A stretch of 64,000 bases of DNA from an uncultured Candidatus Saccharibacteria bacterium. GTDB lineage: Bacteria; Patescibacteriota; Minisyncoccia; 2-02-FULL-40-12; GWA2-44-9. The stretch is from positions 127,914-191,913 of the forward strand of contig CAZENF010000003.1 in NCBI GenBank assembly GCA_964513645.1, given 5' to 3'. Under the pieces are notes generated by a model. It made no database searches. It had not been told where the DNA came from and was given only the letters and a program-made list of their open reading frames with translations. Below are positions 24,092-39,796 of this stretch, in pieces (the stretch's first letter is position 1; each line of letters starts with the position of its first letter). The position numbers and the translations under genes were made by a program.

Positions 24092-24092
24092 A

Positions 24093-25071: not shown

Positions 25072-26925
25072 ATGGCGTCAATCAAAAGAAAAAAAATAAC
25101 CGCCCTTATTCCTTGCTATAACGAAGCCGGAGGTATTGCTGCGGTCATCAATAATTTTCCGTTTGATAAAATTGATTATCAGGGTTTTGACCTCGAGATA
25201 GTTGTTATCGATAACAATTCGAGCGATTCGACTCCGAATATCGCACGTTCGCTCGGCGTAACCGTTCTCCATGAACCGATAAAAGGCAAAGGCAATGCGA
25301 TGCGCCGGGGTTTTAATTACGCCTTATCAAATCACGCCGATTATATCGTCATGCTCGATGGCGACGATACTTACCGTTCAAAAGAAATTTTAAGACTTAT
25401 CGAACCTTTGGATTCCGGTTTTTGCGACGTGGTTGTCGGCTCACGTTTGGGAGGACGTATTCATGATGGCTCGATGACGACTTTTAACAGGATGGGCAAC
25501 TGGGTGTTCTCTCATCTTGTCCGATATTTTTATCAGGTTAACGTAACCGATGTTCTCACCGGTTATTTTGCCTGGACCAAAAAAGCTTTGAAACATCTCG
25601 CCCCGAATCTCAAATCGCAGGGTTTTGCCATTGAAATGGAAATGGTCACTAAAATGGCGCGTCTCGGAGAGGAAATTTACTCTGTACCCATCTCATACGA
25701 TAAACGTGCCGGTGAGACCAACCTTAATCCAGTCTATGACGGTGCCAGGATACTTTGGATGTTTGCCAAAAATCTTGTTTGGAATGCTCCGTTGCAGTCG
25801 GTTCAGCGTATCGTTTTTGTTTCCGATGCCATCATGCCTTATAACAAAGGTGGGAAAGAGCGTCGTCTCTATGAAATAACCAAACGTCTCGTCAGGGAAG
25901 GACGCGAGGTACATATCTATACTATGAAATGGTGGGACGGGCCGTTCATCATTGAACACAACGGAGTATATTTCCATGCCATCTCGAAACTATATCCTTT
26001 ATACAACGGAGGCCACCGCTCGATAAAACAAGCTATCATGTTCGGTCTGGCCACTTTCAAACTTATCTTCGTTGATTTCGATGTTCTCGATGTCGACCAT
26101 ATGCCGTTCTTCCCGCTTTTCAGTGCGAGAATAGTAACCTGGTTAAAGGGTAAAAAACTTCAGGCCACCTGGCATGAGGTCTGGGGCTATAACTACTGGA
26201 TGCACTATTTAAAGGGCCTGAGTGGATTTATCGGATACATTATAGAGAGAACATCTCTTTTAATGCCGGATACAATTATTTCAAACTCGGAACACACTAC
26301 CGGCCGTCTTAAATCGGCGGGATTTAACGGTATCATCCAAACCATTCCCTTAGGAGTGGATGTTCCGAGAATAAAATCAGTCAAGAAAGCAAGCGACAAA
26401 AGCGATGTCATCTTTGTCGGGCGTTTGCTCGAGAATAAGAATGCGGATCTTCTGGTCAAAGCCATTGCTCTCGTTAAATACATCTATCCGAATGTCATCT
26501 GTAAGATCGTCGGTGACGGACCGGAAAAAGATAATATCGAAGGTCTTATCCGCAGACTTGGTCTCGAACAAAATATCCACATCACGTCTTTTGTTGCGGA
26601 AAGCGACGAGCTTTATTCTTTGATGAAGGCCTCTAAGATGCTGGTCTTGCCCTCTATCCGGGAAGGTTTTGGTCTGGTTGTGGTTGAGGCAAATGCGGCC
26701 GGCATCCCTGTTATCACCACATCTCACGAGGATAACGCTGCCCGGCACCTCATTCAGGAAGGCAGCAACGGTCTTCTGGCCGATGCAAGCATGAGAAGTA
26801 TTGCTGAAAAAATAATCAAAATAATGAGGAATGAAAATAAAATGCAGCCCAAAAAAGATATAGAGAAATATGACTGGCCTGTCGTGGTCCAACGAGTGGA
26901 ACAGGTTATAGGGCCGATGCCGTAA
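25072..26925 (+). CDS. Bifunctional glycosyltransferase: N-terminal GT2 (Dpm1-like) fused to C-terminal GT4 (group 1)
   Basis: N-terminal ALIPCYNEAGGI...VVIDNNSSDST...MLDGDDTY (GT-A DXD). C-terminal VGRLLENKNADLL...PSIREGFGLVVVEANAAGIPVITT (GT4 E-x7-E region). Confidence 0.75.
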   Translation: MASIKRKKITALIPCYNEAGGIAAVINNFPFDKIDYQGFDLEIVVIDNNSSDSTPNIARSLGVTVLHEPIKGKGNAMRRGFNYALSNHADYIVMLDGDDTYRSKEILRLIEPLDSGFCDVVVGSRLGGRIHDGSMTTFNRMGNWVFSHLVRYFYQVNVTDVLTGYFAWTKKALKHLAPNLKSQGFAIEMEMVTKMARLGEEIYSVPISYDKRAGETNLNPVYDGARILWMFAKNLVWNAPLQSVQRIVFVSDAIMPYNKGGKERRLYEITKRLVREGREVHIYTMKWWDGPFIIEHNGVYFHAISKLYPLYNGGHRSIKQAIMFGLATFKLIFVDFDVLDVDHMPFFPLFSARIVTWLKGKKLQATWHEVWGYNYWMHYLKGLSGFIGYIIERTSLLMPDTIISNSEHTTGRLKSAGFNGIIQTIPLGVDVPRIKSVKKASDKSDVIFVGRLLENKNADLLVKAIALVKYIYPNVICKIVGDGPEKDNIEGLIRRLGLEQNIHITSFVAESDELYSLMKASKMLVLPSIREGFGLVVVEANAAGIPVITTSHEDNAARHLIQEGSNGLLADASMRSIAEKIIKIMRNENKMQPKKDIEKYDWPVVVQRVEQVIGPMP

Positions 26926-26926
26926 A

Positions 26927-27625
26927 ATGAAAAAAATAAAAGTTACAACCAGCTGGGATGACGGCCATATGCTCGACATCCGTATCGCTAAACTCTTGAG
27001 AAAATACAACCTTAAGGGGACGTTTTTTATTTCTCCCAAGGACAGGGAGCTTTCTCCGACCGAACGTTTGACTGGCGGGGAGATAAAAATGCTGTCCAAA
27101 GAATTTGAGATCGGCGCACATACGATGACGCATCCGCTTTTAACCCGCGTTGAGGACCATATCGCCTATAAGGAAATCCTTGATTCCAAGAATTATCTTG
27201 AAAAGATCCTCCACAAACCGGTTAGAAGTTTTTGTTATCCCGGAGGTTTTTATAAAAAGAAACACCAACTTATCCTAAAAAAGCTCGGCTTTAAGTTAAG
27301 CAGGACAGTCAGCAGATTCGAGACTGAAACTGGTTCGAATTTGTTTGCTGTCCCGACAACTGTCCACGCCTACCGTCATTGGTCGGATATCGTTCCGATA
27401 TTTAAAAATGCCGGCTTCAGAAAATTCCTTTCCCGATATCTGAATTGGGATGAACTGGCCATATCCATGTTCGACAAAATAGCCGAGACCGGAGGCGTTT
27501 TTCATCTATGGGGTCATTCCTGGGAAATAGAAAAAAACAATGACTGGGAAAGATTGGAACGAGTTTTTAAACATATTTCAAATCACGCTAACGCCAAATA
27601 TATAACCAATGGAGACGTCGCCTAA
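26927..27625 (+). CDS. Polysaccharide deacetylase (CE4 / NodB homology domain)
   Basis: TTSWDDGHMLDIRIAKLLRKYNLKGTFFI (TFDDG-like motif 1), GAHTMTHP (motif 2 His); starts 2 nt after the upstream gene. Confidence 0.65.
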   Translation: MKKIKVTTSWDDGHMLDIRIAKLLRKYNLKGTFFISPKDRELSPTERLTGGEIKMLSKEFEIGAHTMTHPLLTRVEDHIAYKEILDSKNYLEKILHKPVRSFCYPGGFYKKKHQLILKKLGFKLSRTVSRFETETGSNLFAVPTTVHAYRHWSDIVPIFKNAGFRKFLSRYLNWDELAISMFDKIAETGGVFHLWGHSWEIEKNNDWERLERVFKHISNHANAKYITNGDVA

Positions 27626-30600
27626 AACAATTCTGCTTGTCGCTCCGTATTTTCCTCCTGACGGCGGCGGTTTAGAACGCTATGCCTTCGAGATCGCCAA
27701 GCGTCTCGCTAAAGGCTACAACTGGCGCATCGTCGTGATGGTGTCCGGCAAAAAATATGGTGAGGATACTAAAGAAGAATCAAACGGCCTGACGATATAC
27801 CGATTAGGATATAGTCTCAAAATTTCTAATACTCCATTAGGATTTTTGTGGTTTGGTAAAATTCGCAAAATTTTAAAGACTGAAAAACCAGATATCATAA
27901 ACATCCACACTCCTGTTCCGGGTATCGGAGATATAACTTCTTTTTTAGCGGGCAGCATCCCGACCGTGGTTACATACCATACCGGCAGCATGCTTAAGAG
28001 TAAGATCTTGCCGGATATTGCTGTCCGGTTATATGAGTACGGGCCTATGAGATTACTTCTGAACCAGGCCAAACATATAATTTGTTCGTCTGACTTTGTC
28101 CGTTTTAATTTTCTTGGGCGCTATATTCATAAAAGCACTACTATCACTCCTGCGGTCGATGTAGATATATTTAAGCCAGATGTCTCAAAAAAAGCTAAAG
28201 ACCCGACTGTATTGTTTGTCGCAGGTCTTGGCCATTCAGAACAGTACAAAGGTCTTGCTACTCTTTTGAATGCCATTTCGATGGTCAAAAATGATATTTC
28301 GAATATCCGACTTATTGTGGCCGGAGACGGGGATATGCGCTCAGAATACGAATCCCAAGCGGAAAAATTAGGAATCGGAAGCTCTGTAGATTTCAGAGGT
28401 AAATTAAGCAATGGCAAATTAGTTGCGGCTTATCAGGAAGCTCACATTTTTGTCTTACCGACATCAAATGACAGTTTTCCTTTAACCATCCTCGAAGCTA
28501 TGGCAACAGAATTGCCTGTGGTCTCAACCAGGATCGGTAGCATACCTTCTATAATTGAAAGCGGTCAAGACGGCTTCTTAATTAACGGATTTACTGCAGA
28601 GGCCGTAGCTTCTGATATATCGAAGATAATTAAAGACGAAATCGTTAAATTGAATTTTGGTCTTGCTGGTCGTAAAAAAGTATTAGATAAGTTTAATTGG
28701 AAATTGCGTGCTGATCAATATCAAAACGTTCTGTCATCTATTTCAGAATTTAAATTAAGGACAGTTCGAAAAATAGCTATTGTAACTCCATATTTTTATC
28801 CCAAGATTGGCGGACTTGAAAATTATGCTCTTGAAATGGGCAGAGCTTTAAGGCGCGACGGTAACGATATTTTTGTCATTACCAGTAATCATTTAAACAA
28901 AAAATGGCAATACGAAGAAATAGAAGGTATGAAGATTTATCGCATGCCAAGATTGTTTAAGATATCGAACACGCCGGTAAATCCTTTATGGTATTTATGG
29001 GTCTGGCGTATTTTAAGGCTTGAAAGACCAGATCTTATCAATGCCCATACCCCTGTTCCATTTATTGCCGATGTGACCGAAAGAGTAAGGGGCAATATAC
29101 CCCTTGTTTTAAATTATCACAATGATCTTGTGAAAAGTAATTTGTTTGCAGATCTGCTTTGTCGCATATCCTATATCTTTATGATAAACAAAACACTGCG
29201 TGATGCAGATAAGATAATAGCGACATCTCAATATTACGCTTCGCAATCCAGTTATTTAAGGCCGCTAATCAGTAAAATTGATTTTGTTCCGCCCGGAGTA
29301 GATATTAATAGATATAAACTCAATCTTGATGCACGCTATTTTAAAGAACGTTTTAAAGATTTTCGCACTGTGCTTTTTGTTGGTCAATTGGATAAAACCC
29401 ACAGACACAAAGGTCTGGACGATATAATAAAAGCCGTTGCCGAACTGAGGTCGTCGATAAAAAATATTAAACTTGTTGTTGTGGGTAAGGGTAATAATAT
29501 TGATTCATATAAAAAATATGCTGCTTCTCTTGGTATTGAAAATCAAGTAAGTTTCGAGGGGTTTGTTGAAGATGATGTATTGCCACAATATTATGCGGGA
29601 GCGGACGTTTTGGTCTTGCCGTCCAAAGATAAGTCAGAAGGTTTCGGGATGGTTATAACTGAGGCAGCTGCCTGCGGTACGCCAGCTGTTGCAAGTAGAA
29701 TCGGAGGAATCCCGGCAGCTCTAATAGACGGAGAGACCGGTATCCTGGTTTCACCTAATAATGTTTTACAACTTTCTGCGGCCATGAAAAAAATACTGGA
29801 CAATGGAACTTTTGCCAAAAAGTTAGGTGATAATGCCAGTTTGCGTATTAAAAAAGAGTTTGCATTATCGGTAGTAACAAGCAAATTTGTGGATATAATT
29901 TGTAAGATCGAGAAGAAAATTTCTATACTGCAAGTAGTGCCTTATTATCCACCCCACATAGGAGGAATGGAATTAAGGGTCAGAGATTTATCTACAAACT
30001 TGGTTAAGGAAAAAGTTGATGTTAATGTCATCACTTCTAACATTGGCGCTCAAAGCGGTTATTCTGAACAGAACGGTGTCAAGGTTAACTATCTGCCAGC
30101 ATTCAATTTTGCTAATACTCCATTTACCCCGGGACTTATATGGTACTTGCTTACTGTAAAAAAGCCCGATGTGTTTCACATACACATATCTCAAGCTTTT
30201 TTTCCGGAAATAGCTGCTATTGTTGCGAAAATAAGAGGTATTCCATACATAACCCATATACGTTTACTAGTTGAAGCATCAGGAGTTTTCGGAATTCTTC
30301 TGCCGATATACAGATATTTTGTATTAAAGCCGGTACTTCTTGGCTCAAAATACGTCATAACTTTGACAGAAGACGATAAGGAAATAGTGAATAATAAATT
30401 TAAGGTCCCGTTACCACGGATAAAAGTAATTCCAAACGCTACAGATTTTGGAATCATTGACTCACCAAGAACTATAACCAAACCTCTCAATATCCTTGCT
30501 GTTGGACGTATATCTCTTCAAAAAAATTATTCATTCATGTTGCAGGTTATGAGTGAATTCAAGAAAATATATGGCCCTGATTTTAAGTTAAAAATTGTTG

Positions 30601-31025
30601 GTACTGGTGACGGTTTATATAACCTTAAAAACGAGGCTGAAAAATTAAATCTCAAAAATAATATTCTATTCTTAGACGAAAAAATAGGTTCAGAACTGGA
30701 AGACATATACAGCAAATCTGATATTTTTCTGCATACATCTACTAAAGAAGGTTTTGGTACTGTTTTTATTGAAGCCATGACCAAGGGCTTGCCAGTGGTA
30801 GCTTCAAATATCCCTGGTTCACGTAATGTGATTATGAATGGAAGGAACGGCTTGTTAAGTGATTTTTCCTCTGAGGATATGGCTAAGAAGCTCGAACTTT
30901 TGTGCAGGGATCAATCCTTATACCAAAAAATCAGTGAAAATAATATTTCAGATGTTAAAAAATACAATTGGGACAATGTAGCGACTGATACGATCAACAC
31001 TTACTTACATGCAAGAAATTTTTAA
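27609..31025 (+). CDS. Triple GT4 glycosyltransferase: three complete tandem GT4 modules in one 1138-aa polypeptide
   Basis: Module starts: TILLVAPYFPPDGGGLERYAFEIA; KIAIVTPYFYPKIGGLENYALEMGRAL; ISILQVVPYYPPHIGGMELRVRDLS. Three C-terminal nucleotide-sugar motifs (DSFPLTILEAMATELPVVST; SEGFGMVITEAAACGTPAVAS; KEGFGTVFIEAMTKGLPVVAS). Confidence 0.75.
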   Translation: METSPKTILLVAPYFPPDGGGLERYAFEIAKRLAKGYNWRIVVMVSGKKYGEDTKEESNGLTIYRLGYSLKISNTPLGFLWFGKIRKILKTEKPDIINIHTPVPGIGDITSFLAGSIPTVVTYHTGSMLKSKILPDIAVRLYEYGPMRLLLNQAKHIICSSDFVRFNFLGRYIHKSTTITPAVDVDIFKPDVSKKAKDPTVLFVAGLGHSEQYKGLATLLNAISMVKNDISNIRLIVAGDGDMRSEYESQAEKLGIGSSVDFRGKLSNGKLVAAYQEAHIFVLPTSNDSFPLTILEAMATELPVVSTRIGSIPSIIESGQDGFLINGFTAEAVASDISKIIKDEIVKLNFGLAGRKKVLDKFNWKLRADQYQNVLSSISEFKLRTVRKIAIVTPYFYPKIGGLENYALEMGRALRRDGNDIFVITSNHLNKKWQYEEIEGMKIYRMPRLFKISNTPVNPLWYLWVWRILRLERPDLINAHTPVPFIADVTERVRGNIPLVLNYHNDLVKSNLFADLLCRISYIFMINKTLRDADKIIATSQYYASQSSYLRPLISKIDFVPPGVDINRYKLNLDARYFKERFKDFRTVLFVGQLDKTHRHKGLDDIIKAVAELRSSIKNIKLVVVGKGNNIDSYKKYAASLGIENQVSFEGFVEDDVLPQYYAGADVLVLPSKDKSEGFGMVITEAAACGTPAVASRIGGIPAALIDGETGILVSPNNVLQLSAAMKKILDNGTFAKKLGDNASLRIKKEFALSVVTSKFVDIICKIEKKISILQVVPYYPPHIGGMELRVRDLSTNLVKEKVDVNVITSNIGAQSGYSEQNGVKVNYLPAFNFANTPFTPGLIWYLLTVKKPDVFHIHISQAFFPEIAAIVAKIRGIPYITHIRLLVEASGVFGILLPIYRYFVLKPVLLGSKYVITLTEDDKEIVNNKFKVPLPRIKVIPNATDFGIIDSPRTITKPLNILAVGRISLQKNYSFMLQVMSEFKKIYGPDFKLKIVGTGDGLYNLKNEAEKLNLKNNILFLDEKIGSELEDIYSKSDIFLHTSTKEGFGTVFIEAMTKGLPVVASNIPGSRNVIMNGRNGLLSDFSSEDMAKKLELLCRDQSLYQKISENNISDVKKYNWDNVATDTINTYLHARNF

Positions 31026-32931
31026 TAAAAACACATTAATAGGGCAAATAAGCGCATACTATCCGCCCCACATAGGCGGAATTGAAAATGTGGTTGAGGC
31101 TGTTAGTAGGGAATTATCTGTGATGGGTCGGAATGTACAGGTGATTACAGCATCTAACTCACACTTATCAGAAAAAAACCATCCTCGTATAATCGGGTTG
31201 AAATATTTTGAAATTGCTCATGTACCTTTTACTCCCGGGCTTCTTTGGTATCTTTTGATGTTGCCCAAAAATTCTTTAATGCATCTTCATATTGCTCATG
31301 CATTTTTTCCAGAGCAAGTATTTATTGCTTCAAAAATAAGGAAGATACCATATATAGTTCATTTTCATCTCGACGTAGGACCATCGACTTTTTTAGGACC
31401 CCTATTCTTGTTATATAAAAAGATTGTCTGGGGGCCTGTTTTGCGCAGCGCAAGTAAGGTTATCGTTTTATCAAATGAACAATTAAGTTTGGTTTCCAGC
31501 AAGTATGGGGTTAAGAAAGAAAATATCGTCATTGTTTCTAATGGTGTGGGCCAAGAATTTATTAAGATCGGTAAGGAGCGTAAATCGTTTAGCAAAACTC
31601 TGCGTCTTCTGTCCGTCGGTCGTTTAGCAATACAAAAACGTCCGGAACGGCTATTGTATGCCATGTTGTCGTTGAATGTTCCTGTACATATGACTTTTGT
31701 TGGGGACGGTGAAGATAGAGAAAAACTTGAAACATTGGCCCGTGAATTGAAACTGACCAATGTCACTTTTGTCGGAAAAAAATTCGGAGACGAATTACTT
31801 GAGTATTACCGCAATTCAGATGTCTTTTTAATATCTTCAGATGAAGAGGGGATGCCCTTAGTGGTACTCGAAGCCATGGCTTCCGGTCTGCCTGTTATTG
31901 GTACGGATGTCATCGGTACACGTGAACTTGTAAAAGATACAGGGTTGCTTGTAGCCGAGCCATACCTCCAGAATTTTACATATGCCATAAGTAAACTTCA
32001 TTATAATCCAGAATTAGTAAAAGAATTGTCACAAAAAAGTGTTGAGAAAGCCAGTTCTTATACTTGGGCCAGTGCGGTTGAAAAAATAACTAAAATTTAT
32101 ACCGATATTTTAAAAAATGATGTTGTCTCACAAAATCGTAACCGGGAAATTGAGTTCTGGGACAATGTTAGCAAGAGAGATAAAGAATGGATTGTCAGTA
32201 CACCAAAGGAAGAAATCGAACAATTTATAGTTGATAAAATACGGAGAGGAAATACCAGATGGTGGGAGCCGATGATTGGCAAGTTAGAGGGCAAAAAAAT
32301 ATTAGACATAGGGTGTGGTACAACTTTTTTTGCGACATACTGGTCGTTGACGGGTAATGATTCTTTTGGTTCCGACTATTCACCAGAAACTATCAAAACA
32401 AATAATCTTTTACACGAAAAATTAGGATTGAAAAAGAATTTTTATGTTGCTTCGTCCGAGAAAATAGATGCAGCGGATAACTCTTTGGATGTAGTGCATA
32501 TGCGTTGGGTAATACATCATATACCACCAGAATTACAAAATAGCTCTATGTATGAGATAAAACGAGTTCTTAAACCTGGCGGAAAACTTATCGTATTTGA
32601 AACCAATTATGCCTACCCATTTAGATGGATAGTTCAGACACCGATATTGCGTAGTTTAAATTTTTTAAGACATTACGCTATAAATAAAGGTTGGTTAGAC
32701 CCAGAAGAAAAAGCTCTAACCAACGAAGGATATATAAATCTTATTGAGAATAATGGCTTTAAGATAAATATTGTTGACCACGATTTTACGTTCTTCTACT
32801 ACCCAGTAAGTTTATTGACCCGAAATGAATTCATAAGAAACTTAGTTCGGGAGTTTGATAATACAATCAGATCAATTATATCGGATAGGTTTAGTAAGGA
32901 TATTAAAATAATTGCAGAAAAATATGAATGA
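31009..32931 (+). CDS. GT4 glycosyltransferase fused to a C-terminal class I SAM-dependent methyltransferase
   Basis: N-terminal ISAYYPPHIGGIENVV...EGMPLVVLEAMASGLPVIGT. C-terminal ILDIGCGTTFFATYW (MTase motif I), LDVVHMRWVIHHI, LKPGGKLIVFE (motif post-II/III). Overlaps upstream by 17 nt. Confidence 0.75.
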   Translation: MQEIFNKNTLIGQISAYYPPHIGGIENVVEAVSRELSVMGRNVQVITASNSHLSEKNHPRIIGLKYFEIAHVPFTPGLLWYLLMLPKNSLMHLHIAHAFFPEQVFIASKIRKIPYIVHFHLDVGPSTFLGPLFLLYKKIVWGPVLRSASKVIVLSNEQLSLVSSKYGVKKENIVIVSNGVGQEFIKIGKERKSFSKTLRLLSVGRLAIQKRPERLLYAMLSLNVPVHMTFVGDGEDREKLETLARELKLTNVTFVGKKFGDELLEYYRNSDVFLISSDEEGMPLVVLEAMASGLPVIGTDVIGTRELVKDTGLLVAEPYLQNFTYAISKLHYNPELVKELSQKSVEKASSYTWASAVEKITKIYTDILKNDVVSQNRNREIEFWDNVSKRDKEWIVSTPKEEIEQFIVDKIRRGNTRWWEPMIGKLEGKKILDIGCGTTFFATYWSLTGNDSFGSDYSPETIKTNNLLHEKLGLKKNFYVASSEKIDAADNSLDVVHMRWVIHHIPPELQNSSMYEIKRVLKPGGKLIVFETNYAYPFRWIVQTPILRSLNFLRHYAINKGWLDPEEKALTNEGYINLIENNGFKINIVDHDFTFFYYPVSLLTRNEFIRNLVREFDNTIRSIISDRFSKDIKIIAEKYE

Positions 32932-35303
32932 ATAAAGTGCGTATTAAAATCTCGACAATATTAATTGTATCCATAGTTTGGTGGGCGGTCTTTGTGTGCC
33001 TGTCTTTGCTTCAGTTTAATCCGTTTGAAATTCTGAACATTACGGGTTTTCTTTTTCTAATTATTATTCCAGGCCTCTTAACCGTTTTGACTTTGGGTTT
33101 GGCCAATCTTGAATTCTGGGCAGCATCTGCTTTTGTTGTGGCATTCAGTATTTTTGAACTGATGTTAACCGCTCTTCTTGGCAACACCTTTTTGCCTTAT
33201 ATTGGTTTTCCACATCCGTTCCTGCCGAATATACTTATGACCCAGGTCTCGGTCCTGTTCTGGGTCCTGATTGGCATAAATTTATACGACGGAAATAAAT
33301 TTGAATTTAATATCCCGCGCTATTTTATTTTCAAAGACTTTAAGAATTTCTGCTTTGCCACTCTTTCGGTCTTGTTTGTTGTCTTAAGTATTTTCGGCGC
33401 TATACGGCTGAATAACGGGGCAAGTAATATTCTGACTATGATTATGCTCGGTTCTATGGGTCTTTATTTTGCTGTGATGCTTTTTAATCAGGATAAGTTC
33501 GAGGAGAACACGATACTTACAGGTTTGTATTTTATTGCTTTAGCTCTTCTTTTAATGACGAGTCTGCGTGGTTGGTATATTACCGGGCATGATATTCAGT
33601 CTGAATTCAAGGTTTTTCAGTTGCTTAAGGAAGATGCAGTCTGGAATATTGCGGCCTATCGTGATGCATACAATGCCTGTTTAAGCATTACTATTCTTCC
33701 GTCGATATTTTCATTCTTGCTCCGCATTCCTGACCAATACATATATAAACTTCTTTTCCAGATAATATTTGCCTTTTCTGTACCGGTTATATACATGACT
33801 GGACGCAAATGGGCAGGTCCGAGAATTTCTCTCCTTGGAATTTTATATTTCATCGGATTTCCAACATTTTTCACTGATATGCCGTTTCTTATTCGCCAGG
33901 AGACCGCCTTCCTGTTCTATGGGCTTATGCTCTATTCAATATTTGCAGCTGATCTTGAAATATTTACACGCCGGATGCTTTTTATCCTTATGGGCTTCGG
34001 TGTAATATTTTCCCACTACTCTACTACATATACGGTTTTGATGATATTTGGTTTAGCTGTTTTTTTCCGGCCAATACTTATCAAACTATTTGAAAGATTT
34101 GAAGACTCATATCTTGTCAAAAAATCAGGACTTGCGTCTTTGCTTGCTTATAACAGTCATGAAAAAGGTAAGATTACTATGGGCATGATTTTTCTCTTAC
34201 TTGCGGCGAGCTTTTTCTGGACGTCCAGTATCACTCAGACAGGAGGAGGTTTATCCAAAGTAATAAATGAGACAGTCTCAGCAGTGCAAAACGGTTTTGG
34301 AGAGGGGAACCGCTCGATTGATATAAATACGCTTCTTAGTTTCAGCCATCCTGACCAAAACCAAGAAATGCAGGGGTTTATCAAAAATTCAATAGGTAAG
34401 ATACGTGCCCAAGCAAATCCGGGCATATTTTATCCCGAAAAATCTTATAGCCAATACTCATTCTCCGCCTTACCGCAGGAATTAGTGCCTTTAACAGGCG
34501 GAGCTCAATGGCTGATTAATCACGGTATAAACATCGGAAAAATTATGACACTGTTTGGTTCCATTCTCGGAAAGCTGATAGAGGTTCTGGCTCCTTTGGG
34601 TATGATACATGTTTTGTTCAAAAAGAAGGTAGTTACATACATAGATGATGAGATCTATCTTATATCATTTTTCTCATTTGTGTTTATTCTTATGAACATC
34701 GTTTTGCCGGTGCTCTCGACTGAATACGGAATATTCCGTGCAATGCAGCAAGCAATGTTCATTATTGCCCCTATTATAGTATTGGGCAGTATGTCGTTGG
34801 GGGATATTTTGGCCAAAATTATCAGACATTCTAAAACAGCAATTATTTTTGCCACGCTTATGGCTCTGGTATTTTTCACTTATTCCACCTCTTTTGACCG
34901 CGAACTTATCGGCGGCTATTCAGCGGTTCTCCATTTAAGTAATTACGGTACCTATTATGACAACTATCTTATTCATGATGTTGAGGTTGTTGGTGTAGAA
35001 TGGATAACCAATATAGCTACAGCCAACCCGGAGAACATCAACGGAGTCCGGCTCTCGGTTCAAACCGACAGATATTCACGGGCAAAATTCGCATCATTAA
35101 CTACCTTGTCGACGGACAATGATATTTTTCCTGGGGTAGTTAGGAAATCGGCTTATGTATTCTTAAACCTGGCTAACGTAACCAAACAGCGTGCCGTAGC
35201 GTTCTATAATGGCGACCCTATTGCTTATGCTTATCCTGTAAAATTTTTGGATGAAAATAAAAACCTTATCTATGACAGCAACGGAGCCAGGGTTTATAAA
35301 TAA
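32928..35303 (+). CDS. Large polytopic membrane protein (putative GT-C-type glycosyltransferase, polymerase or YfhO-like)
   Basis: 791 aa. More than 12 predicted TM helices in two blocks separated by a predicted extracytoplasmic region, plus a 150-aa C-terminal soluble domain. No signature motif recognised. Overlaps upstream by 4 nt. Confidence 0.4.
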   Translation: MNKVRIKISTILIVSIVWWAVFVCLSLLQFNPFEILNITGFLFLIIIPGLLTVLTLGLANLEFWAASAFVVAFSIFELMLTALLGNTFLPYIGFPHPFLPNILMTQVSVLFWVLIGINLYDGNKFEFNIPRYFIFKDFKNFCFATLSVLFVVLSIFGAIRLNNGASNILTMIMLGSMGLYFAVMLFNQDKFEENTILTGLYFIALALLLMTSLRGWYITGHDIQSEFKVFQLLKEDAVWNIAAYRDAYNACLSITILPSIFSFLLRIPDQYIYKLLFQIIFAFSVPVIYMTGRKWAGPRISLLGILYFIGFPTFFTDMPFLIRQETAFLFYGLMLYSIFAADLEIFTRRMLFILMGFGVIFSHYSTTYTVLMIFGLAVFFRPILIKLFERFEDSYLVKKSGLASLLAYNSHEKGKITMGMIFLLLAASFFWTSSITQTGGGLSKVINETVSAVQNGFGEGNRSIDINTLLSFSHPDQNQEMQGFIKNSIGKIRAQANPGIFYPEKSYSQYSFSALPQELVPLTGGAQWLINHGINIGKIMTLFGSILGKLIEVLAPLGMIHVLFKKKVVTYIDDEIYLISFFSFVFILMNIVLPVLSTEYGIFRAMQQAMFIIAPIIVLGSMSLGDILAKIIRHSKTAIIFATLMALVFFTYSTSFDRELIGGYSAVLHLSNYGTYYDNYLIHDVEVVGVEWITNIATANPENINGVRLSVQTDRYSRAKFASLTTLSTDNDIFPGVVRKSAYVFLNLANVTKQRAVAFYNGDPIAYAYPVKFLDENKNLIYDSNGARVYK

Positions 35304-35304
35304 T

Positions 35305-38300
35305 ATGAAATTCATAATCGTAAATTCATTTCACAGAGACGACAAAGGTGACGCAGCGCTCACCCATGTTTTGATCGATCAGCTTTTATCCATCGACCCG
35401 AAGGCCGACATTGCTGTTTCGAGCATGGAGGAACCGTCCAACTACCCTTCATTTTATAAGGGACGCAATATCGGTTCTATCGAGCTTTATTCATCCTCAC
35501 AAATTCACCCCGGCTTGAGCCATATATTTTACAAAGTGTACTCGTTCTTAGCATTGTTTTTAACCGCCGAGGCTGGTAAAAAATTCTCATGGGTATTATC
35601 CAAAGACCTCGCTAAGATATACGAAGAATACAGAATAGCTGATATGATAATTTCTGTCGGAGGCGGATACTTTACAACTAAGCCTAACTTTGGCAGCCGT
35701 CTGCATTTGCTGTTTGCTCTTGAAACGTTAATGCTTTGCAAACGCATGGGCCTTAAAGTTGTTACCGCTCCGGTATCGGTCGGGCCGTTTCAGTATTCAT
35801 ACGAAGCCAGATATGCTTCCCGAATACTTAAAAAAATGGACTTGGTGATGTTGCGGGAAGATGTAAGTAAGAAATATTTTGTTGATAAGGAAGACAACCT
35901 GCCGGAAAACATTATTCGTGTACCTGACAGCGCTTTTGCTTTTAATCCGGAAGGGGATTTTGATTTGCGCGGTCTGGTTAAGGTAAAACCTGAACAAAAA
36001 ATTCTTATTTTAAGCGTACGCAACTGGCTCTTGTCGGATAAACAATCAGTTTACGAAAAAGCCCATGCCGATCTAATTGACCACATTGCTCAAAAATATC
36101 CGGATATTTTGCCAGTATTCATAAATCAATGCACCTTTCCTGATGTCAGTGAAGATGACCGTCTTGTTGTCGAAAGGATAATGGCGATGTCCAAGTCGAA
36201 AAAAGCGGCGTTTATTGCCGAAGATCTCGACTATATAAAGGTAAAACTTGCATATAAGCAGGCGGATTTTGTGATAGGTACGAGATTTCATGCCATGGTA
36301 TTCGGTCTGGCTTATCAGGTACCGGGAATTGCAATTGAGTATGAACATAAAACCCGCGGTATTATGCGTGACTTAGGTCTTGAAGAATGGGTAATTTCTA
36401 TTAGCAAAGTAACTTCAGAAAAACTTATTCAGCTATTCGGCGATATAGTAAAATTCCGAGAATTTTATAAAGAGCATTTGAAGAAGATAATGCCAGGGTA
36501 TAGTCACTCCACCGACAACGCCGTGAATATACTTTTAAATGTACTTCGAAAAAGAAACGAAGTTTATGTTCCCGGTAAAATAAGTCAAAAAATTAATAAA
36601 ATAATTTCTAAATTATATAACGACAGCTTATACAGAAATTCTTTTTATCTTATATTGGCCACCGCCGTTTTAGCCGGATTTGGATTTTTCTTCTGGCTCA
36701 TCAGTGCCCATTATATTTCGGCGGAGCAGATAGGAATTGCTACTGCTCTTATCTCGGCAATGAATATTATTGCCATTTTAAGTTTGATAGGTTTTGACAG
36801 CGCTATTGTCAGGTTTTTGTGGCATTCAACTAAGCGGAATGACAAACTCAATACCGCAATTATCTTGGTTGGTTCGGCTGCAACCCTGTTAAGCACAGCT
36901 TTCCTGTTGTTCTTGCCTTATATATCACCTAAGCTCGAATTTATCAGAAATAGTCCGCTAACTCTTTTTGCATTCATAATTTTCTGTGTCATGTCGTCTA
37001 TAAATATCCTTACCGATGCTGTTTTTTTGGCGTATCGAAAAACTGATTTTTCAATGATTATAAATACGATCTTCAGTTTCGTTAAAATGCTGTTGCCTTT
37101 GCTTTTTGTAAGATGGGGTGCATTTGGGATATTTTCAGCCGCTGCCATCGGCCAGTCGGTCGGGTTCATTTTGAGTATTTTTGCGATGATATGGAAATTT
37201 GATTATAAACCTAAATTTGTTGTGAATATGGAAATAGTCCGCGAGGTCTGGGATTATTGCGCCGCTAATTATGTGGCCGGTATTTTTAACCTTATCCCGG
37301 TAATGCTTTTGCCCATAATTATTACTAATCACCTCGGTTCGGCCCAAGCGGCCTATTTCTATATCGTTATGATGATAGCTAACCTCCTTTATGTTATTCC
37401 GCAGGCCGCCAATCGTTCTCTTTTTGCCGAGGGAGCTTTTGATGAAAAATCTTTCCATAAAAACATAGACAAAGCCGTTAAGATGATAGGCATATTACTT
37501 TTGCCGGCAATAATTATCTTTATTCTGGGCGGCAATTTTATACTTTCATTTTTCGGTAAAAATTATTCCGCCGAGGGCATCAATTTCTTTTATCTTGTTA
37601 TTTTTTCAGGTTTATCGGTAAGCATGTATTCTCTCTCAAACTCATTGTACCGGGTCAAGAAACAACTTACCCCGCTTATTATTTCAAACGCTGTCTATGC
37701 CTTCACGATCTTAGCTACCGCTTATCTCTTGCTTGATCACGGTCTGGTCGGCATTGGTCTTGCCTGGTTTGCCGGTAATACTTTGGCCTGTGTCGGATAT
37801 TTATTTTATATGAAAGAAGCTGAATATAAAATGATAGGCCGCGGTTGGCAGTATACGGTCTATGATATGGGAAATAGCAGAGTAGAAAAGAAGTATAATT
37901 CAATTTTTTTGTCCTATTTTATGATGTTTAAGGACGCGTTCAGGTATTTAAGGATGCCGGACCTGGCTTTCAGGAAGTATTATCGGGAAACTCAAAAAAT
38001 AGCCATGAACTCTCTTGAAAAAGTAATGGCTTCTCCTCTTGATAAAAATTTGTTCGGTAATCCGAAAATGATAGGAACTGTTGGATATGAGCAGGACCAC
38101 CTTAAGTCTCTTGGTAAGTATTTTATGGAACATAGCGCGGACGAATCAAAGGATAAGATAGACCGGGTGGTCAAATTTTGTCTGATGCTGTTCGAGCACT
38201 CATTGGCGGAAAAATATTTTAATATAGCAGACAATTTTGGTCTGGATGCTTCAGGTAATATCGTGTTGATAGATCTTGGGGAAATTATTGATTCGCGGGA

Positions 38301-38424
38301 AGAAATATCCGTTCAGATAAAAAACCGGGCATGGTCCGCCCCGGACGTTATTTCCGAGTTTCCGGAAAAACTACGCGGGTATTTTGTCCGGTCAATGGAT
38401 AATGCATTTGCCAATAAAATATAA
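35305..38424 (+). CDS. Fusion protein: polysaccharide pyruvyl transferase (CsaB/WcaK family) + Wzx-like MOP flippase + C-terminal soluble domain
   Basis: N-terminal ISVGGGYFTT...DFVIGTRFHAMVFGLAYQVPGIAIEYEHKTRG (PS_pyruv_trans). Middle: at least 12 TM with Wzx/polysaccharide-biosynthesis-protein pattern. C-terminal 240 aa unassigned. Start taken at ATG 35305 (2 nt after upstream stop); the track start at 35251 overlaps the upstream gene. Confidence 0.6.
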   Translation: MKFIIVNSFHRDDKGDAALTHVLIDQLLSIDPKADIAVSSMEEPSNYPSFYKGRNIGSIELYSSSQIHPGLSHIFYKVYSFLALFLTAEAGKKFSWVLSKDLAKIYEEYRIADMIISVGGGYFTTKPNFGSRLHLLFALETLMLCKRMGLKVVTAPVSVGPFQYSYEARYASRILKKMDLVMLREDVSKKYFVDKEDNLPENIIRVPDSAFAFNPEGDFDLRGLVKVKPEQKILILSVRNWLLSDKQSVYEKAHADLIDHIAQKYPDILPVFINQCTFPDVSEDDRLVVERIMAMSKSKKAAFIAEDLDYIKVKLAYKQADFVIGTRFHAMVFGLAYQVPGIAIEYEHKTRGIMRDLGLEEWVISISKVTSEKLIQLFGDIVKFREFYKEHLKKIMPGYSHSTDNAVNILLNVLRKRNEVYVPGKISQKINKIISKLYNDSLYRNSFYLILATAVLAGFGFFFWLISAHYISAEQIGIATALISAMNIIAILSLIGFDSAIVRFLWHSTKRNDKLNTAIILVGSAATLLSTAFLLFLPYISPKLEFIRNSPLTLFAFIIFCVMSSINILTDAVFLAYRKTDFSMIINTIFSFVKMLLPLLFVRWGAFGIFSAAAIGQSVGFILSIFAMIWKFDYKPKFVVNMEIVREVWDYCAANYVAGIFNLIPVMLLPIIITNHLGSAQAAYFYIVMMIANLLYVIPQAANRSLFAEGAFDEKSFHKNIDKAVKMIGILLLPAIIIFILGGNFILSFFGKNYSAEGINFFYLVIFSGLSVSMYSLSNSLYRVKKQLTPLIISNAVYAFTILATAYLLLDHGLVGIGLAWFAGNTLACVGYLFYMKEAEYKMIGRGWQYTVYDMGNSRVEKKYNSIFLSYFMMFKDAFRYLRMPDLAFRKYYRETQKIAMNSLEKVMASPLDKNLFGNPKMIGTVGYEQDHLKSLGKYFMEHSADESKDKIDRVVKFCLMLFEHSLAEKYFNIADNFGLDASGNIVLIDLGEIIDSREEISVQIKNRAWSAPDVISEFPEKLRGYFVRSMDNAFANKI

Positions 38425-38432
38425 ACTGAACC

Positions 38433-39638
38433 ATGAAAATATCCAACATTCGAACGAAGATAGATAGTGACACCGTTACTCTGATGGCCGACTGCAAGAT
38501 AAGGCCGGTAGGTATTGACACAGTATATTTTAAATTCCCACTTAAATATAGGAATTTTATCTATGAAGATGCAAGTCCTTTCGCTGCGGCTTTATTGATA
38601 CCTTCGATGTATTTTGATCAATCTCTCGAGATAGACGGAACGATAAGCGCCAAACTCTATGAAGGGATGCACAAGGCCCAAGACGTTCTTTTGGGCTGGA
38701 ACTTAAAAGACCCAAGGTTAAATAGAATAGAGATAAAAGTTAAGAATACTGCCAGGGATTCCGCATCTCCGGATAAAGTTGCAATGTTTTTTTCCGGAGG
38801 GGTGGACTCCTTTCATACTTTTCTTAAACATGAACATGACAAAATTGACCCCCTCACACACTTAATACTGGTTAATGGCAATGATATCGATATTCGCAAC
38901 AAACAATTATGGTCAGAAACAAGTGAGAGAATCGGAGCGGTCGCCAAAGAAACGGGCAAGGAAGTGATAGAAGTTGAAACAAACGTTCAGGTATTGACAG
39001 AGCCGATGTTAAACCCTGAATATACTCACGGTGGAAATCTCGGAGCGATGGGGTTATGCCTTCGAGGCGGACTTAAAAAAATATACATTGCTTCAACTTT
39101 CAGCTATGAACAGAATATGCCGTACGGTTCGAGTCCGGAGCTTGATTATTTATGGAGCAGTGAAGTTTTACAATTTGAACACGACGGTGCCGAAACCATA
39201 AGAGTTAAGAAAGTTGAGGATTTCATTGCCAAATCCCCGCTTGCATTGAAATATCTACGGGTCTGTAACCGCAATGTCAAAGGTACTTATAATTGCGGCA
39301 AATGTGAAAAATGTACCCGTACAATGCTTAACTTATATATGGCCGGGGCGTTGGATAAGGCACAAACTCTCCCGCATATTATTGATCCCAAACTTTTGGC
39401 ATGTAATGTTTCTCTCGATGGTCCAACCAACGACAGTTATACGCGACTTCATAAGACTATGATCGAAAAGAATATCGATAAAGAACTTCGGGATGCGGTT
39501 AAGTGGGGAGTAGATAATATGATAACAGTCTCTCAAACCCCTAAAGAAAAAATTATCCGCGGGATGATACGCCTTGACCATATGTATTTAAGAGGTTTCC
39601 TGTTCAAGATATGGTTAAGTATCGTTCATCCGTATTAA
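38433..39638 (+). CDS. PP-loop ATP pyrophosphatase family protein with QueC-like C-terminal zinc motif (candidate sugar amidotransferase)
   Basis: FFSGGVDSFHTF (SGGxDS PP-loop) at about residue 115. C-terminal C-x9-CGKCEKC resembles the QueC zinc site. N-terminal 110 aa unassigned. Last gene of the co-directional glycan cluster. Confidence 0.45.
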   Translation: MKISNIRTKIDSDTVTLMADCKIRPVGIDTVYFKFPLKYRNFIYEDASPFAAALLIPSMYFDQSLEIDGTISAKLYEGMHKAQDVLLGWNLKDPRLNRIEIKVKNTARDSASPDKVAMFFSGGVDSFHTFLKHEHDKIDPLTHLILVNGNDIDIRNKQLWSETSERIGAVAKETGKEVIEVETNVQVLTEPMLNPEYTHGGNLGAMGLCLRGGLKKIYIASTFSYEQNMPYGSSPELDYLWSSEVLQFEHDGAETIRVKKVEDFIAKSPLALKYLRVCNRNVKGTYNCGKCEKCTRTMLNLYMAGALDKAQTLPHIIDPKLLACNVSLDGPTNDSYTRLHKTMIEKNIDKELRDAVKWGVDNMITVSQTPKEKIIRGMIRLDHMYLRGFLFKIWLSIVHPY

Positions 39639-39767: not shown

Positions 39768-39796
39768 TTGTAGAAACAGTTTTAAACTGCTACAAT
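39768..39796 (+). promoter_or_regulatory. Sigma70-like promoter (TTGTAG-17-TACAAT) overlapping the annotated ATG of the downstream gene
   Basis: ttgtag at 39768-39773, 17-nt spacer, tacaat at 39791-39796. If used, translation starts downstream (candidate ATG 39843, MNNNSEGK...). Confidence 0.4.

Follow-up and report, generated by a model that had tools for sequence, protein, structure and literature searches.

The polysaccharide pellicle (PSP) of Lactococcus is initiated on undecaprenyl monophosphate by a Dol-P-Man-synthase-related GT2, which makes GlcNAc-P-C55 with no involvement of a phosphoglycosyl transferase (PGT), and elongation by a cytoplasmic glycosyltransferase has been demonstrated; in the authors' model, Wzx flips the chain and GT-C enzymes act thereafter (PMC10821137). 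The components of this pathway are WpsA/WpsB, WpsC-F, the Wzx protein WpsG and the GT-C enzymes WpsH/I/J. The Agl N-glycosylation pathway of Haloferax volcanii employs a monophosphate carrier, the initiator AglJ, a methyltransferase (AglP), a Wzx-like flippase (AglR) and a GT-C final transferase (AglB). The GacI/GacJ/GacK/GacL and GtrA/B/C systems, each of which moves one sugar, co-encode a polyprenyl-P GT2 and a GT-C transferase with a flippase, which in Gac is of the Wzx type, and Wzx/Wzy exopolysaccharide operons, such as that for Psl of Pseudomonas aeruginosa, combine several GT4 enzymes and Wzx with an in-operon, membrane-anchored PslG-type hydrolase.

The locus described here, located in a 64,000-nucleotide window of an uncultured Candidatus Saccharibacteria genome, is a genuine gene cluster for making a cell-surface polymer of sugars that carries decorations. 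It represents, in an unusually fused form, a cassette of ten genes found repeatedly in ultra-small Patescibacteria as well as in Actinomycetota and Chloroflexota. The cassette, centered on the uncharacterized membrane glycosyltransferase family DUF2206, is apparently undescribed; the original prediction of an undescribed system holds for this key protein family, for which a literature search found no functional paper under either DUF2206 or PF09971.

The closest demonstrated logic for the cassette, as proposed below, is that of Lactococcus PSP, where cytoplasmic glycosyltransferases extend the chain and, in the authors' model, a Wzx-type flippase exports it and GT-C fold enzymes polymerize or attach it (PMC10821137). 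The cassette differs from PSP in that its GT2, which is often fused to GT4, carries DGDDT in this locus rather than DxDxQ, the place of the small partner is taken by the bitopic DUF1616 protein, homology of which to WpsB/GacJ is not established, the GT-C enzyme comes from the uncharacterized DUF2206 family, there are additional functions, namely a CE4 enzyme, a PslG-like hydrolase, pyruvylation, methylation and a PP-loop enzyme, and a rhamnan partner pathway is missing. Compared with Gac and Gtr, the cassette integrates three to six GT4 modules along with a deacetylase and a hydrolase, with modules repeatedly fused to GT2 and GT-C.

Organization of the locus

The seven ORFs of the original prediction were reproduced at exactly the same coordinates, as were nearly all of its domain calls (Pfam and NCBIfam): the GT2, GT4, CE4, methyltransferase, pyruvyltransferase, Wzx and PP-loop domains are genuine and make up a glycan-assembly operon. 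The true span is wider than these seven genes, from a DUF1616-like gene that starts at 24615 to the second of two PslG-like hydrolase genes, which ends at 43783, with all features on the forward strand. In the 123-nt gap ahead of the first cassette gene lies the best sigma-70-like promoter match (24539..24567, +; TTGACA-17-TATTAT, 11/12), which is a consensus match only, regional counts of such sites not being above those in shuffles.

The modules DUF1616, GT2, GT4, CE4, DUF2206, Wzx and PslG-like hydrolase recur across 80 related loci. Conservation was counted in 47 loci with at least 7 kb on both sides, which cover Patescibacteria, Actinomycetota and Chloroflexota; 46 of these have GT2, 45 have Wzx, 39 have the hydrolase and 34 have CE4. 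The conserved first gene (24615..25061) encodes a 148-aa DUF1616-like bitopic protein (PF07760, E 1.9e-5, below the cut-off) with a single N-terminal TM helix in a hydropathy scan, followed by a beta-rich ectodomain. This gene adjoins GT2 in 27 of the 47 complete loci, and in two loci (L059 and L076) a DUF1616-like segment follows the C-terminus of Wzx (PF07760, E 4e-4 and 5e-3, below the cut-off). The mechanism proposed below leaves DUF1616 without a role, which counts against it.

Putative initiating and extending enzymes

The next gene encodes a 617-aa GT2-GT4 fusion (25072..26925), in which Pfam and NCBIfam place GT2 at residues 11-171. The GT2 part (about 25072-25821) is a putative initiating polyprenyl-phosphate hexosyl/HexNAc transferase, and the GT4a part (about 25837-26925) contains the EX7E motif. 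Every one of the best named relatives of the GT2 (AglJ, Dol-P hexose transferase, PpgS, DPMS and ArnC) is a polyprenyl-P glycosyltransferase, with the archaeal AglJ at the top (TIGR04182, E 9e-56), albeit at 189 bits against an equivalog cut-off of 325; the PDB matches are P. furiosus DPMS (5mlz, E 4e-11), then ArnC. The DxDxQ hallmark reported for polyprenyl-P GT2s is absent, the protein having DGDDT and the cassettes as a whole conforming to D(G/A)Dx(T/S)Y, which counts against the explanation favored below. The same genome encodes another GT2, of DxDxQ type and paired with two PMT enzymes, so that the one in the cassette is an enzyme in its own right with a dedicated function. Judging by these relatives, the AglJ-like or Dol-P-Man-synthase-like domain, overlooked in the original prediction, is a plausible initiator. 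Fusions of this type, 609-650 aa long, are also found in L003, L011, L014, L017, L023 and L061.

As originally noted, no PGT, Wzy or Wzz is recognizable in this locus. None of Bac_transf, Glycos_transf_4, Wzy_C, Wzz and LCP recurs among 84 unassigned intra-cassette ORFs or 145 ORFs lying within 3.5 kb to each side of the cassettes, and none occurs in 37 Pfam-scanned ORFs of the window, the scan leaving aside about 18 further ORFs of at least 120 aa, none in or beside the cluster. The cassette departs from Psl and other Wzx/Wzy operons in lacking a PslA/WbaP/WecA-type PGT, Wzy, PCP/Wzz and an outer-membrane export component, with a GT-C enzyme present instead. Many O-antigen clusters, however, lack the initiating PGT, which is encoded elsewhere, and this counts against initiation by the cassette GT2.

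The GT2-GT4 gene is followed by that for a cytoplasmic CE4 de-N-acetylase of 232 aa (26927..27625; PF01522 Polysacc_deac_1, E 1.5e-19), in which the motifs DD, HxxxH and RxxxYP are readable as SWDDG, HTMTH and RSFCYP, and neither a signal peptide nor a TM helix is predicted. Next is a triple GT4 fusion of 1138 aa (27609..31025) with three full GT4 matches, namely modules b (residues 1-380), c (381-770) and d (771-1138), of which b carries a DX7E variant; the mutual identity of the three is only 24-34%, so they are not recent duplicates. A 640-aa protein (31009..32931) joins GT4e to a class-I SAM methyltransferase (residues 425-545; Pfam/NCBIfam), a rare module found in 1 of the 47 other loci.

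A GT4 and a deacetylase together with a DPM1-like GT2 and a GT-C enzyme parallel GPI and PIM logic, and the product could be a lipoglycan or glycolipid anchor (PIM/LM/LAM- or GPI-like), with GT4 glycosylating a phospholipid or diacylglycerol, CE4 removing N-acetyl groups (cf. PIG-A/PIG-L) and DUF2206 extending the glycan outside with a GT2-made polyprenyl-P-sugar. Three intra-cassette ORFs match PIG-L-family deacetylases, the GT4 modules match MGlcDAG and GlcNAc-PG synthases at generic levels, and AftA, ALG9/12 and PIG-M are among the DUF2206 fold matches. We nevertheless consider such an anchor very unlikely, because the GT4 matches are family-level only, far under every equivalog cut-off, nearly all of the cassettes have a MOP/Wzx flippase, a class whose known members act on polyprenyl-linked substrates, and the PslG-like hydrolase is suggestive of a polymer that undergoes release or processing.

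The DUF2206 glycosyltransferase

The 791-aa polytopic membrane protein (32928..35303) belongs to DUF2206 and has a GT-C glycosyltransferase fold, which the original prediction overlooked; it could stand in for Wzy or a ligase, as a putative extracytoplasmic polymerase or ligase. PglB, STT3 and AglB are among its top fold matches, but the fold searches do not separate oligosaccharyltransferase-like enzymes from monosaccharide-transferring GT-Cs. The nearest sequence family is PMT_2/ArnT-like, which transfers single sugars rather than oligosaccharides; this, like the lack of discrimination in the fold searches, weighs against the pathway favored below. Homologues of the protein show weak PMT_2 matches.

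PMT_2 enzymes use monosaccharide donors, and GT2, a flippase of the Wzx type plus GT-C amount to exactly the four-component GacI/J/K/L logic (PMC10821137). Accordingly, the GT2 might make a polyprenyl-P-monosaccharide that is flipped by Wzx, like GacK, and added outside by DUF2206 as a single side-chain sugar, while the GT4 modules build a separate main chain, its carrier having been primed by a PGT of housekeeping type, to be polymerized or ligated by enzymes encoded elsewhere; PGT genes are commonly located outside glycan clusters. We regard this as an unlikely, if credible, alternative: the cassette, conserved as it is in three phyla, would provide neither exporter nor polymerase nor ligase for the GT4-made chain, such a scheme accounts less easily for the recurring fusions of GT2-GT4 and GT4-GTC type, and the bitopic DUF1616 partner is not a multi-pass GtrA-type flippase.

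The oligosaccharyltransferases among the fold matches and the AglJ-like GT2, reminiscent of archaeal N-glycosylation, could also point to protein glycosylation, the S-layer idea of the original prediction, with DUF2206 moving a flipped oligosaccharide to pilins, S-layer proteins or nearby Pro/Thr-rich sortase substrates; a type IV pilus operon lies upstream in the window, and PT-rich secreted or sortase-substrate proteins and a sortase lie downstream. The likeness to Agl extends to the methyltransferase, the Wzx-like flippase, the GT-C enzyme and, presumably, the monophosphate carrier, whereas the extending enzymes of the cassette are GT4 rather than GT2, the host is bacterial, and the WWDxG motif of AglB/STT3, looked for in the DUF2206 protein, is absent. 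Furthermore, pilus genes flank 0 of the 80 related loci, a sortase is found beside few of them (three in the synteny map and two more among flanking ORFs), and two PMT O-mannosyltransferases that could serve PT-rich proteins are already present in the genome. With the polysaccharide hydrolase retained in 39 of the 47 loci, protein glycosylation seems quite improbable.

Flippase fusion and PP-loop protein

The ORF at 35251-38424 encodes 1057 aa, but the gene likely starts at the ATG at 35305, one base past the preceding stop, giving 1039 aa; WcaK alignments start at residue 19 of the longer form. Its first domain (35305..36570) is a pyruvyl (ketal) transferase (PF04230 PS_pyruv_trans, 98.9 bits) resembling WcaK of the colanic acid locus (106 bits) and CsaB (79 bits), both under the equivalog cut-offs, and is an accessory module (13 of the 47 loci). 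The second domain (36583..37815) is a Wzx/MOP-type flippase with about 12 TM segments (PF01943 Polysacc_synt and TM scan), a borderline call in this locus because it scores 28.3 bits against a cut-off of 28.2, although orthologues match clearly and are encoded by stand-alone Wzx genes in 45 of the 47 loci. The pyruvyltransferase-Wzx part is thus as originally described, and the tail, previously 'unknown', can be placed as a small protein-kinase-like domain of about 200 aa (37822..38421). Most of its 310 representative homologues stand alone, with a length of about 200 aa; a weak match to the AceK kinase domain is shown by 16 of 48, and the profile matches AceK PDB chains at E 0.009 across the NFG...DLGE region. 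By this resemblance, it is possibly a sugar or lipid-linked-glycan kinase.

The 401-aa protein that follows (38433..39638) is a PP-loop ATP pyrophosphatase with a QueC-like fold, consistent with its original label as a QueC-like PP-loop ATPase. It shares with QueC and the QueC-like Cap9 the SGGxDS motif and a Cys cluster containing CxxCxxC, but only about 170 of the 401 residues align, at 13% identity, an N-terminal beta domain and a C-terminal helical domain are added, and there is no QueC match in Pfam or NCBIfam even at E 10. Unlike QueC, it is encoded in a glycan operon and strictly co-occurs with the pyruvyltransferase, not with queuosine genes.

Hydrolases and proposed pathway

Two membrane-anchored PslG-like hydrolases complete the cluster. 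The first, of 881 aa (39795..42440), consists of one N-terminal TM helix, three repeats of about 115 aa with Pro/Thr-rich linkers between them, and a PslG-like (clan GH-A) domain with weak GH39 and GH5 matches, and fits the conserved 'GH5' slot of the cassette. The second, of 370 aa with an N-terminal anchor (42671..43783), contains NEP and TEFG motifs and has PslG as the best PDB match (5bx9, E 1.2e-25, residues 49-366). Such hydrolases are typical of exopolysaccharide operons, and their conservation points more towards a polysaccharide product than towards S-layer or protein glycosylation.

We favor, with moderate confidence, the explanation that this heavily fused cassette uses polyprenyl monophosphate as the carrier on which to assemble a decorated heteropolysaccharide. 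The analysis shows the domain identities, the folds, the conserved gene set, its variable fusion and the absence of PGT, Wzy and Wzz genes; the lipid carrier, the order in which the steps take place, the acceptor and what each enzyme acts on are inferred. The GT2 domain would place the first sugar on polyprenyl-P, the five GT4 modules would extend the chain at the cytoplasmic face, and the signal-less CE4 would remove an N-acetyl group. The lipid-linked unit may then be decorated by the methyltransferase, the pyruvyltransferase, the kinase-like domain and the PP-loop enzyme, the last of these probably acting on a carboxylate group, which might be the one in the pyruvate ketal. The Wzx domain would flip the unit and DUF2206 would transfer it outside the membrane, to the growing chain or a wall acceptor, thereby substituting for Wzy or a ligase, after which the two hydrolases may trim or release the polymer.

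Fusion of the cassette modules

The density of fusions had suggested an obligately coupled assembly line. This is not borne out: across the 80 loci, the same modules are either unfused or differently combined, as GT4-CE4, CE4-GT4-GT4, GT4-GT4-GT4-GTC, PyrT-GT4, GT4-Wzx and Wzx-PyrT, so that fusion is frequent in Patescibacteria yet not obligatory. Close relatives encode Wzx separately, on the opposite strand. The concern, raised with the original prediction, that the long ORFs are artefacts of assembly errors or frameshifts joining separate genes draws on the 1138-aa ORF, whose b|c|d junctions are seen in one assembly only and whose triple fusion was not found in any close relative in a metagenome scan. 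Such an origin is extremely unlikely, because an independent Logan re-assembly (L001) carries identical GT4-methyltransferase, DUF2206 and pyruvyltransferase-Wzx-kinase-like ORFs and similar fusions, GT4-GT4 among them, are found in dozens of unrelated assemblies; the modules are cleanly delimited and joined by linkers of about 7-10 aa. Fusions of GT2-GT4 and GT2-GT4-GT4 type are found repeatedly, as consecutive steps would predict, and GT4-GTC fusions physically join cytoplasmic glycosyltransferases to GT-C. Pyruvyltransferase/Wzx fusions are also present in P0245 and Kitasatospora, and the kinase-like domain occurs as separate ORFs of 207-208 aa in L009 and L012.

Gene content of the cluster and authenticity of the fusions

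The original prediction placed a glycan assembly cluster of seven co-directional ORFs at 25072-39638, and the ORFs are found at exactly those positions on the plus strand, with neighbors that either overlap by 4-17 nt or abut. Pfam and NCBIfam searches reproduce the predicted domain content, namely, a GT2-GT4 protein of 617 amino acids (25072-26925), a CE4 deacetylase (26927-27625; PF01522, 70.6 bits against the cut-off of 23.1), a protein of 1138 amino acids with three complete GT4 modules (27609-31025), a GT4 fused to a class I SAM-dependent methyltransferase (31009-32931), a polytopic DUF2206 protein of 791 amino acids (32928-35303), and a fusion of a pyruvyltransferase with the Wzx flippase (1057 amino acids, 35251-38424; the ATG at 35305 is the probable true start). 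The last gene of the cluster encodes a PP-loop protein of 401 amino acids (38433-39638). The five GT4 modules, of which four contain the EX7E motif and one contains DX7E, share just 24-34% identity and hence are distinct enzymes as opposed to recent repeats. In the CE4 protein, the SWDDG, HTMTH and RSFCYP motifs are legible, and the metal-binding and catalytic residues are retained; because there is no signal peptide, this enzyme should act in the cytoplasm.

Long ORFs of this kind could result from frameshifts or misassembly that merged separate genes. Such an artefact is unlikely because the fusions are repeated elsewhere: the GT4-methyltransferase, DUF2206 and pyruvyltransferase-Wzx-tail ORFs are identical in an independent Logan assembly (L001), and unrelated genomes encode GT2-GT4 proteins of 609-650 amino acids, GT4-GT4 proteins, a GT4-GT4-GT4-DUF2206 protein of 1795 amino acids and several pyruvyltransferase/Wzx fusions. 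Unlike the other fusions, the internal junctions of the 1138 amino acid protein are known from one assembly, and a metagenome scan for close relatives of this triple GT4 protein produced distant matches only. The G+C content drops from ∼0.44 to 0.36-0.40 over the stretch that runs from the GT4 modules of the triple fusion (b, c and d) through the PP-loop gene (28000-40000). Values of 0.43-0.48 are retained in the flank upstream, in the genes with which the cluster begins and in the hydrolase genes downstream; this dip would fit lateral exchange of the variable part of the locus.

A conserved cassette with variable fusions

A DUF2206 profile search of one genome per GTDB species matched 401 loci, and the best 80 of these were mapped with the modules of the window itself. 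The gene set recurs in these 80 loci and typically is arranged as DUF1616, GT2, GT4, CE4, GT4, GT4, DUF2206, (GT4), Wzx and a PslG-like hydrolase. Among the carriers are Patescibacteria (Paceibacteria, Saccharimonadia, Adler-, Kaiser-, Yonath- and Woykebacteria), which are the closest relatives of the window cassette (up to ∼55% identity), Actinomycetota (Streptomyces, Pseudonocardia, a Mycobacterium sp., Actinoplanes and Acidimicrobiales) and Chloroflexota. Of the 47 loci with a flank of at least 7 kb on each side, GT2 is present in 46, Wzx in 45, the PslG-like hydrolase in 39 and CE4 in 34, followed by the pyruvyltransferase (13/47), the PP-loop protein (4/47) and the methyltransferase (a single locus of the 47). 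Judging by these counts, the window contains a decorated, additionally fused version of the conserved cassette.

Three ORFs within related cassettes match PIG-L family (GlcNAc-PI de-N-acetylase-like) deacetylases. If these are the loci that lack CE4, de-N-acetylation would look like a core step provided by either deacetylase family. Production of a lipoglycan resembling phosphatidylinositol mannosides or GPI is a rival explanation of the cassette as a whole that we consider improbable.

At least one fusion is found in 21 of the 24 Patescibacterial loci, compared with 8 of the 23 loci from other phyla. The partners vary from locus to locus (GT2-GT4, GT2-GT4-GT4, GT4-CE4, CE4-GT4, CE4-GT4-GT4, GT4-CE4-GT4, GT4-DUF2206, GT4-Wzx, PyrT-GT4 and Wzx-PyrT, where PyrT is the pyruvyltransferase), Wzx is also joined to an AMP-binding domain and to weak DUF1616-like segments in the synteny map, and close relatives encode the pyruvyltransferase and Wzx separately, on opposite strands. 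These shifting partners and separate genes argue against the obligately coupled assembly line that had been envisaged. The observation of a fusion-rich glycan cluster stands, and its interpretation is supported in part. The pattern fits neighboring enzymes that share a single membrane-bound substrate and readily become fused in streamlined genomes; the fusions can be read as a natural ‘Rosetta stone’ map of enzymes that work together.

In nine of the related loci (L015, L017, L018, L029, L031, L035, L036, L037 and L050), the Wzx genes encode 700-1040 amino acids. Many Patescibacterial Wzx proteins have a conserved C-terminal extension of ∼300 amino acids, with profile matches to RimK-type ATP-grasp glutamate ligases (E = 2.8e-4); the Wzx of the related locus L085 has an N-terminal fusion to an AMP-binding adenylating domain; and TupA-like ATP-grasp genes are located within four cassettes.

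A candidate pathway initiated by GT2

Of the components of the Wzx/Wzy-dependent pathway, Wzx itself is present, whereas, in agreement with the original prediction, no phosphoglycosyl transferase (PGT), Wzy or Wzz/PCP was recognized in the ORFs scanned. The flippase belongs to the MOP family, with PF01943 scoring 28.3 bits against the cut-off of 28.2 in the window and orthologs that clearly match Polysacc_synt and Polysacc_synt_3. The scanned ORFs of the window include no Pfam family of PGT (WbaP/Bac_transf or WecA/Glycos_transf_4) and no Wzy_C, O-antigen polymerase, Wzz/PCP or LCP ligase; nor does any PGT, Wzy, Wzz or LCP family recur among the 84 unassigned intra-cassette ORFs and 145 flanking ORFs of the related loci. 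The window does encode MurJ and a separate PMT system.

In sequence and profile searches, each of the best named relatives of the GT2 domain is a polyprenyl-phosphate glycosyltransferase. They comprise AglJ (E = 9e-56), a haloarchaeal Dol-P hexose transferase (3e-27), PpgS (2e-18), Pyrococcus furiosus DPMS (5mlz, 4e-11) and ArnC. AglJ starts a glycan on dolichyl monophosphate, with elongation to follow. The motif DxDxQ has been proposed as the hallmark of the polyprenyl-phosphate GT2 class (PMC10821137). A caveat is that the GT2 of the cluster contains DGDDT in its place, and the cassette-wide consensus is D(G/A)Dx(T/S)Y, whereas the second GT2 of the window, next to two PMT enzymes, has the canonical DSDRQ.

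In the pathway that we infer from this gene content, GT2 would prime polyprenyl phosphate and the GT4 modules would extend the chain, which CE4, the methyltransferase, the pyruvyltransferase, the kinase-like domain and the PP-loop enzyme would decorate in the cytoplasm; Wzx would then flip the product, DUF2206 would transfer it outside the membrane to the growing chain or to a wall acceptor, and the PslG-like hydrolases would trim or release it. The closest experimentally studied logic is that of the Lactococcus PSP pathway, in which WpsA/WpsB have been shown to make GlcNAc-P-C55, the cytoplasmic glycosyltransferase WpsC elongates this intermediate in vitro, and, in the authors' model, Wzx flips the unit before GT-C enzymes polymerize and attach it (PMC10821137). 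The names WpsA and WpsH in a paper on Actinoplanes come from an unrelated naming scheme.

DUF2206, a predicted GT-C transferase

PDB sequence searches with the 791, 1057 and 401 amino acid proteins, and profile searches for the 791 and 401 amino acid proteins, returned nothing meaningful, so that structure prediction was needed. The DUF2206 model, built with 47 homologs (pLDDT 85, pTM 0.88), has the GT-C fold of the transferases in GacIJKL and WpsA-B-G-J-type systems; Foldseek agrees, and many DUF2206 homologs give weak PMT_2 matches. In a rival, Gac-like explanation, which seems rather unlikely to us, the cassette would add a single-sugar decoration to a main chain primed elsewhere. The best conserved block of DUF2206, R214-G-x4-G-H-D-x-Q-x-E226, follows the seventh predicted helix and, by the positive-inside rule, would lie outside the membrane; H221, D222 and E226 are invariant. 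Protein glycosylation would be another function for a GT-C enzyme, and one that we regard as improbable: the 791 amino acid protein contains neither a WWD nor a WxDxG string, the oligosaccharyltransferase motif WWDxG is absent, and the general GT-C fold is all that is shared with STT3, PglB and AglB.

Our tentative proposal, which is possible but doubtful in its entirety, is that DUF2206 is a new GT-C family replacing Wzy or a ligase in a PGT-independent polyprenyl-monophosphate pathway for surface glycans that is widespread in Patescibacteria and shared with some Actinomycetota and Chloroflexota, and that the PP-loop family in this pathway performs a new glycan modification, in which the carboxylate of the pyruvate ketal would be converted, for example amidated, at the expense of ATP. 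One related locus (L039) contains two DUF2206 genes and another (L030) two PP-loop genes; by analogy with lactococcal WpsH and WpsJ, one copy of such a pair could serve as polymerase and the other as ligase.

Accessory proteins of the cassette

The 401 amino acid protein belongs to the PP-loop ATP pyrophosphatase superfamily, with a SGGxDS PP-loop on a Rossmann-like alpha/beta core. It shares the fold core, the PP-loop motif and a cysteine cluster with QueC but has no Pfam or NCBIfam match to a QueC model even at E = 10, and no PDB sequence match; it is, therefore, QueC-like in fold and not a QueC. The gene is confined to loci with a pyruvyltransferase (all seven related loci that carry it, and the window, in Patescibacteria and Acidimicrobiales), with the pyruvyltransferase alone in 11 loci and neither gene in 63 (Fisher's P = 9e-6, uncorrected for phylogeny). 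The substrates that PP-loop enzymes adenylate are carboxylates or carbonyl oxygens. Modification of the pyruvate-ketal carboxylate by this protein is one idea that can be tested. In other loci, Wzx is attached to different carboxylate-activating enzymes, namely, an AMP-binding domain and an ATP-grasp domain that resembles RimK.

The last ∼200 residues of the 1057 amino acid protein represent a family of mostly stand-alone 200 amino acid proteins (310 representatives) with a glycine-rich loop, a conserved lysine, NFG and DLGE motifs and weak similarity to the AceK kinase domain; on the strength of these motifs, the tail is tentatively considered a small kinase-like module. It is a separate family and not a leftover of the RimK-like ATP-grasp extension of Wzx (hhalign probability 1.2%).

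The gene directly upstream of the cluster (24615-25061) encodes a DUF1616-like bitopic protein, and its single transmembrane helix and ectodomain rule out a GtrA-like flippase. In two Acidimicrobiales loci (L059:7921-8730 and L076:2173-2904), a weak DUF1616 match follows the C-terminus of Wzx, with E-values against PF07760 of 4e-4 and 5e-3, under the cut-off. If genuine, these matches suggest that the small DUF1616 protein is a partner of the flippase on the outer face.

Downstream, on the plus strand, are two membrane-anchored hydrolases (39795-42440 and 42671-43783) with PslG, whose gene belongs to the Psl exopolysaccharide operon, as the best solved relative. In the second hydrolase, the match to PslG (5bx9, E = 1.2e-25) covers residues 49-366, and the WNEPN (NEP acid/base) and LTEFG (TE nucleophile) motifs of the PslG-like enzymes of clan GH-A (GH39-like) are legible; the Pfam matches to GH39 and GH5 are at or below threshold. 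The 881 amino acid hydrolase also contains three tandem repeats of ∼115 amino acids (39795-41400) with no Pfam match, a common ‘FDVQPR...SGGSH...TWWYG...GYEP’ pattern and long Pro/Thr linkers in between; these may be a glycan-binding or wall-binding module.

Implications for Patescibacterial surface glycans

The cell-surface chemistry of Patescibacteria (CPR), a group of abundant and for the most part uncultured epibionts, has, to our knowledge, hardly been described. The conserved cassette is a specific candidate for a pathway by which this group would make a surface glycan. The logic of a GT2-primed monophosphate carrier combined with Wzx and GT-C enzymes is already known from lactococci and haloarchaea; the new aspects are the components, the phylogenetic spread and the accessory chemistry. 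The full-text literature searched yielded no functional description of DUF2206, PF09971 or DUF1616, nor of a set of glycosyltransferase, flippase and deacetylase in Saccharibacteria or Patescibacteria. A predicted fold and testable role can now be offered for three families, DUF2206 (GT-C transferase), the 400 amino acid PP-loop family and the 200 amino acid kinase-like family. If the GT2-initiated monophosphate route is correct, this scheme would reach well beyond lactococci, its experimentally characterized home. Some of the organisms with homologous cassettes can be cultivated, among them Pseudonocardia thermophila DSM 43832, Streptomyces gilvus and Actinoplanes liguriensis, which opens the pathway to genetic and biochemical testing. 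Another polysaccharide locus alone would not surprise a specialist, but a conserved, PGT-less, GT-C-dependent cassette in CPR bacteria with homologs in cultivable actinomycetes is a useful lead.

Other genes in the neighborhood

Directly upstream of the cassette region is a type IV pilus-like operon (19384-24491) that encodes a T2SSE ATPase, a T2SSF platform protein, two N_methyl pilins, a 500 amino acid LVIVD-repeat protein and a 132 amino acid transmembrane protein. Pilin glycosylation can be dismissed as a general explanation, given that none of the 80 related loci has a pilus gene in its flanks. A second glycosylation set (55198-60434) is separate from the cassette. Its minus-strand genes encode two GT-C protein O-mannosyltransferases of the PMT family (55198-56643 and 59055-60434) and the ArnC/PgfS-like GT2 with the canonical DSDRQ motif (58339-59058), and a plus-strand gene (56674-58350) encodes a 558 amino acid protein with ∼13 transmembrane helices and no family match.

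The region at 45340-47118 encodes a 376 amino acid protein with a signal peptide or transmembrane helix, a very long Pro/Thr/Ser-rich region and, at the C-terminus, an LPDTD motif and a hydrophobic tail. This protein is probably a substrate of sortase, and a sortase gene (46480-47118) adjoins it. A sortase is also found beside the cassette in three related loci (L049, L061 and L062), with a homolog of the 376 amino acid protein in L061. Between the hydrolases and this region, an FAD-dependent protein of 498 amino acids with one N-terminal hydrophobic segment (43835-45331) was considered as a polyprenol reductase, a reading that found no support, its best match, to VioC-like aromatic monooxygenases (181 bits), far exceeding that to the geranylgeranyl reductase family (49 bits); this VioC-like monooxygenase recurs beside the cassette in four related loci (L006, L019, L029 and L066).
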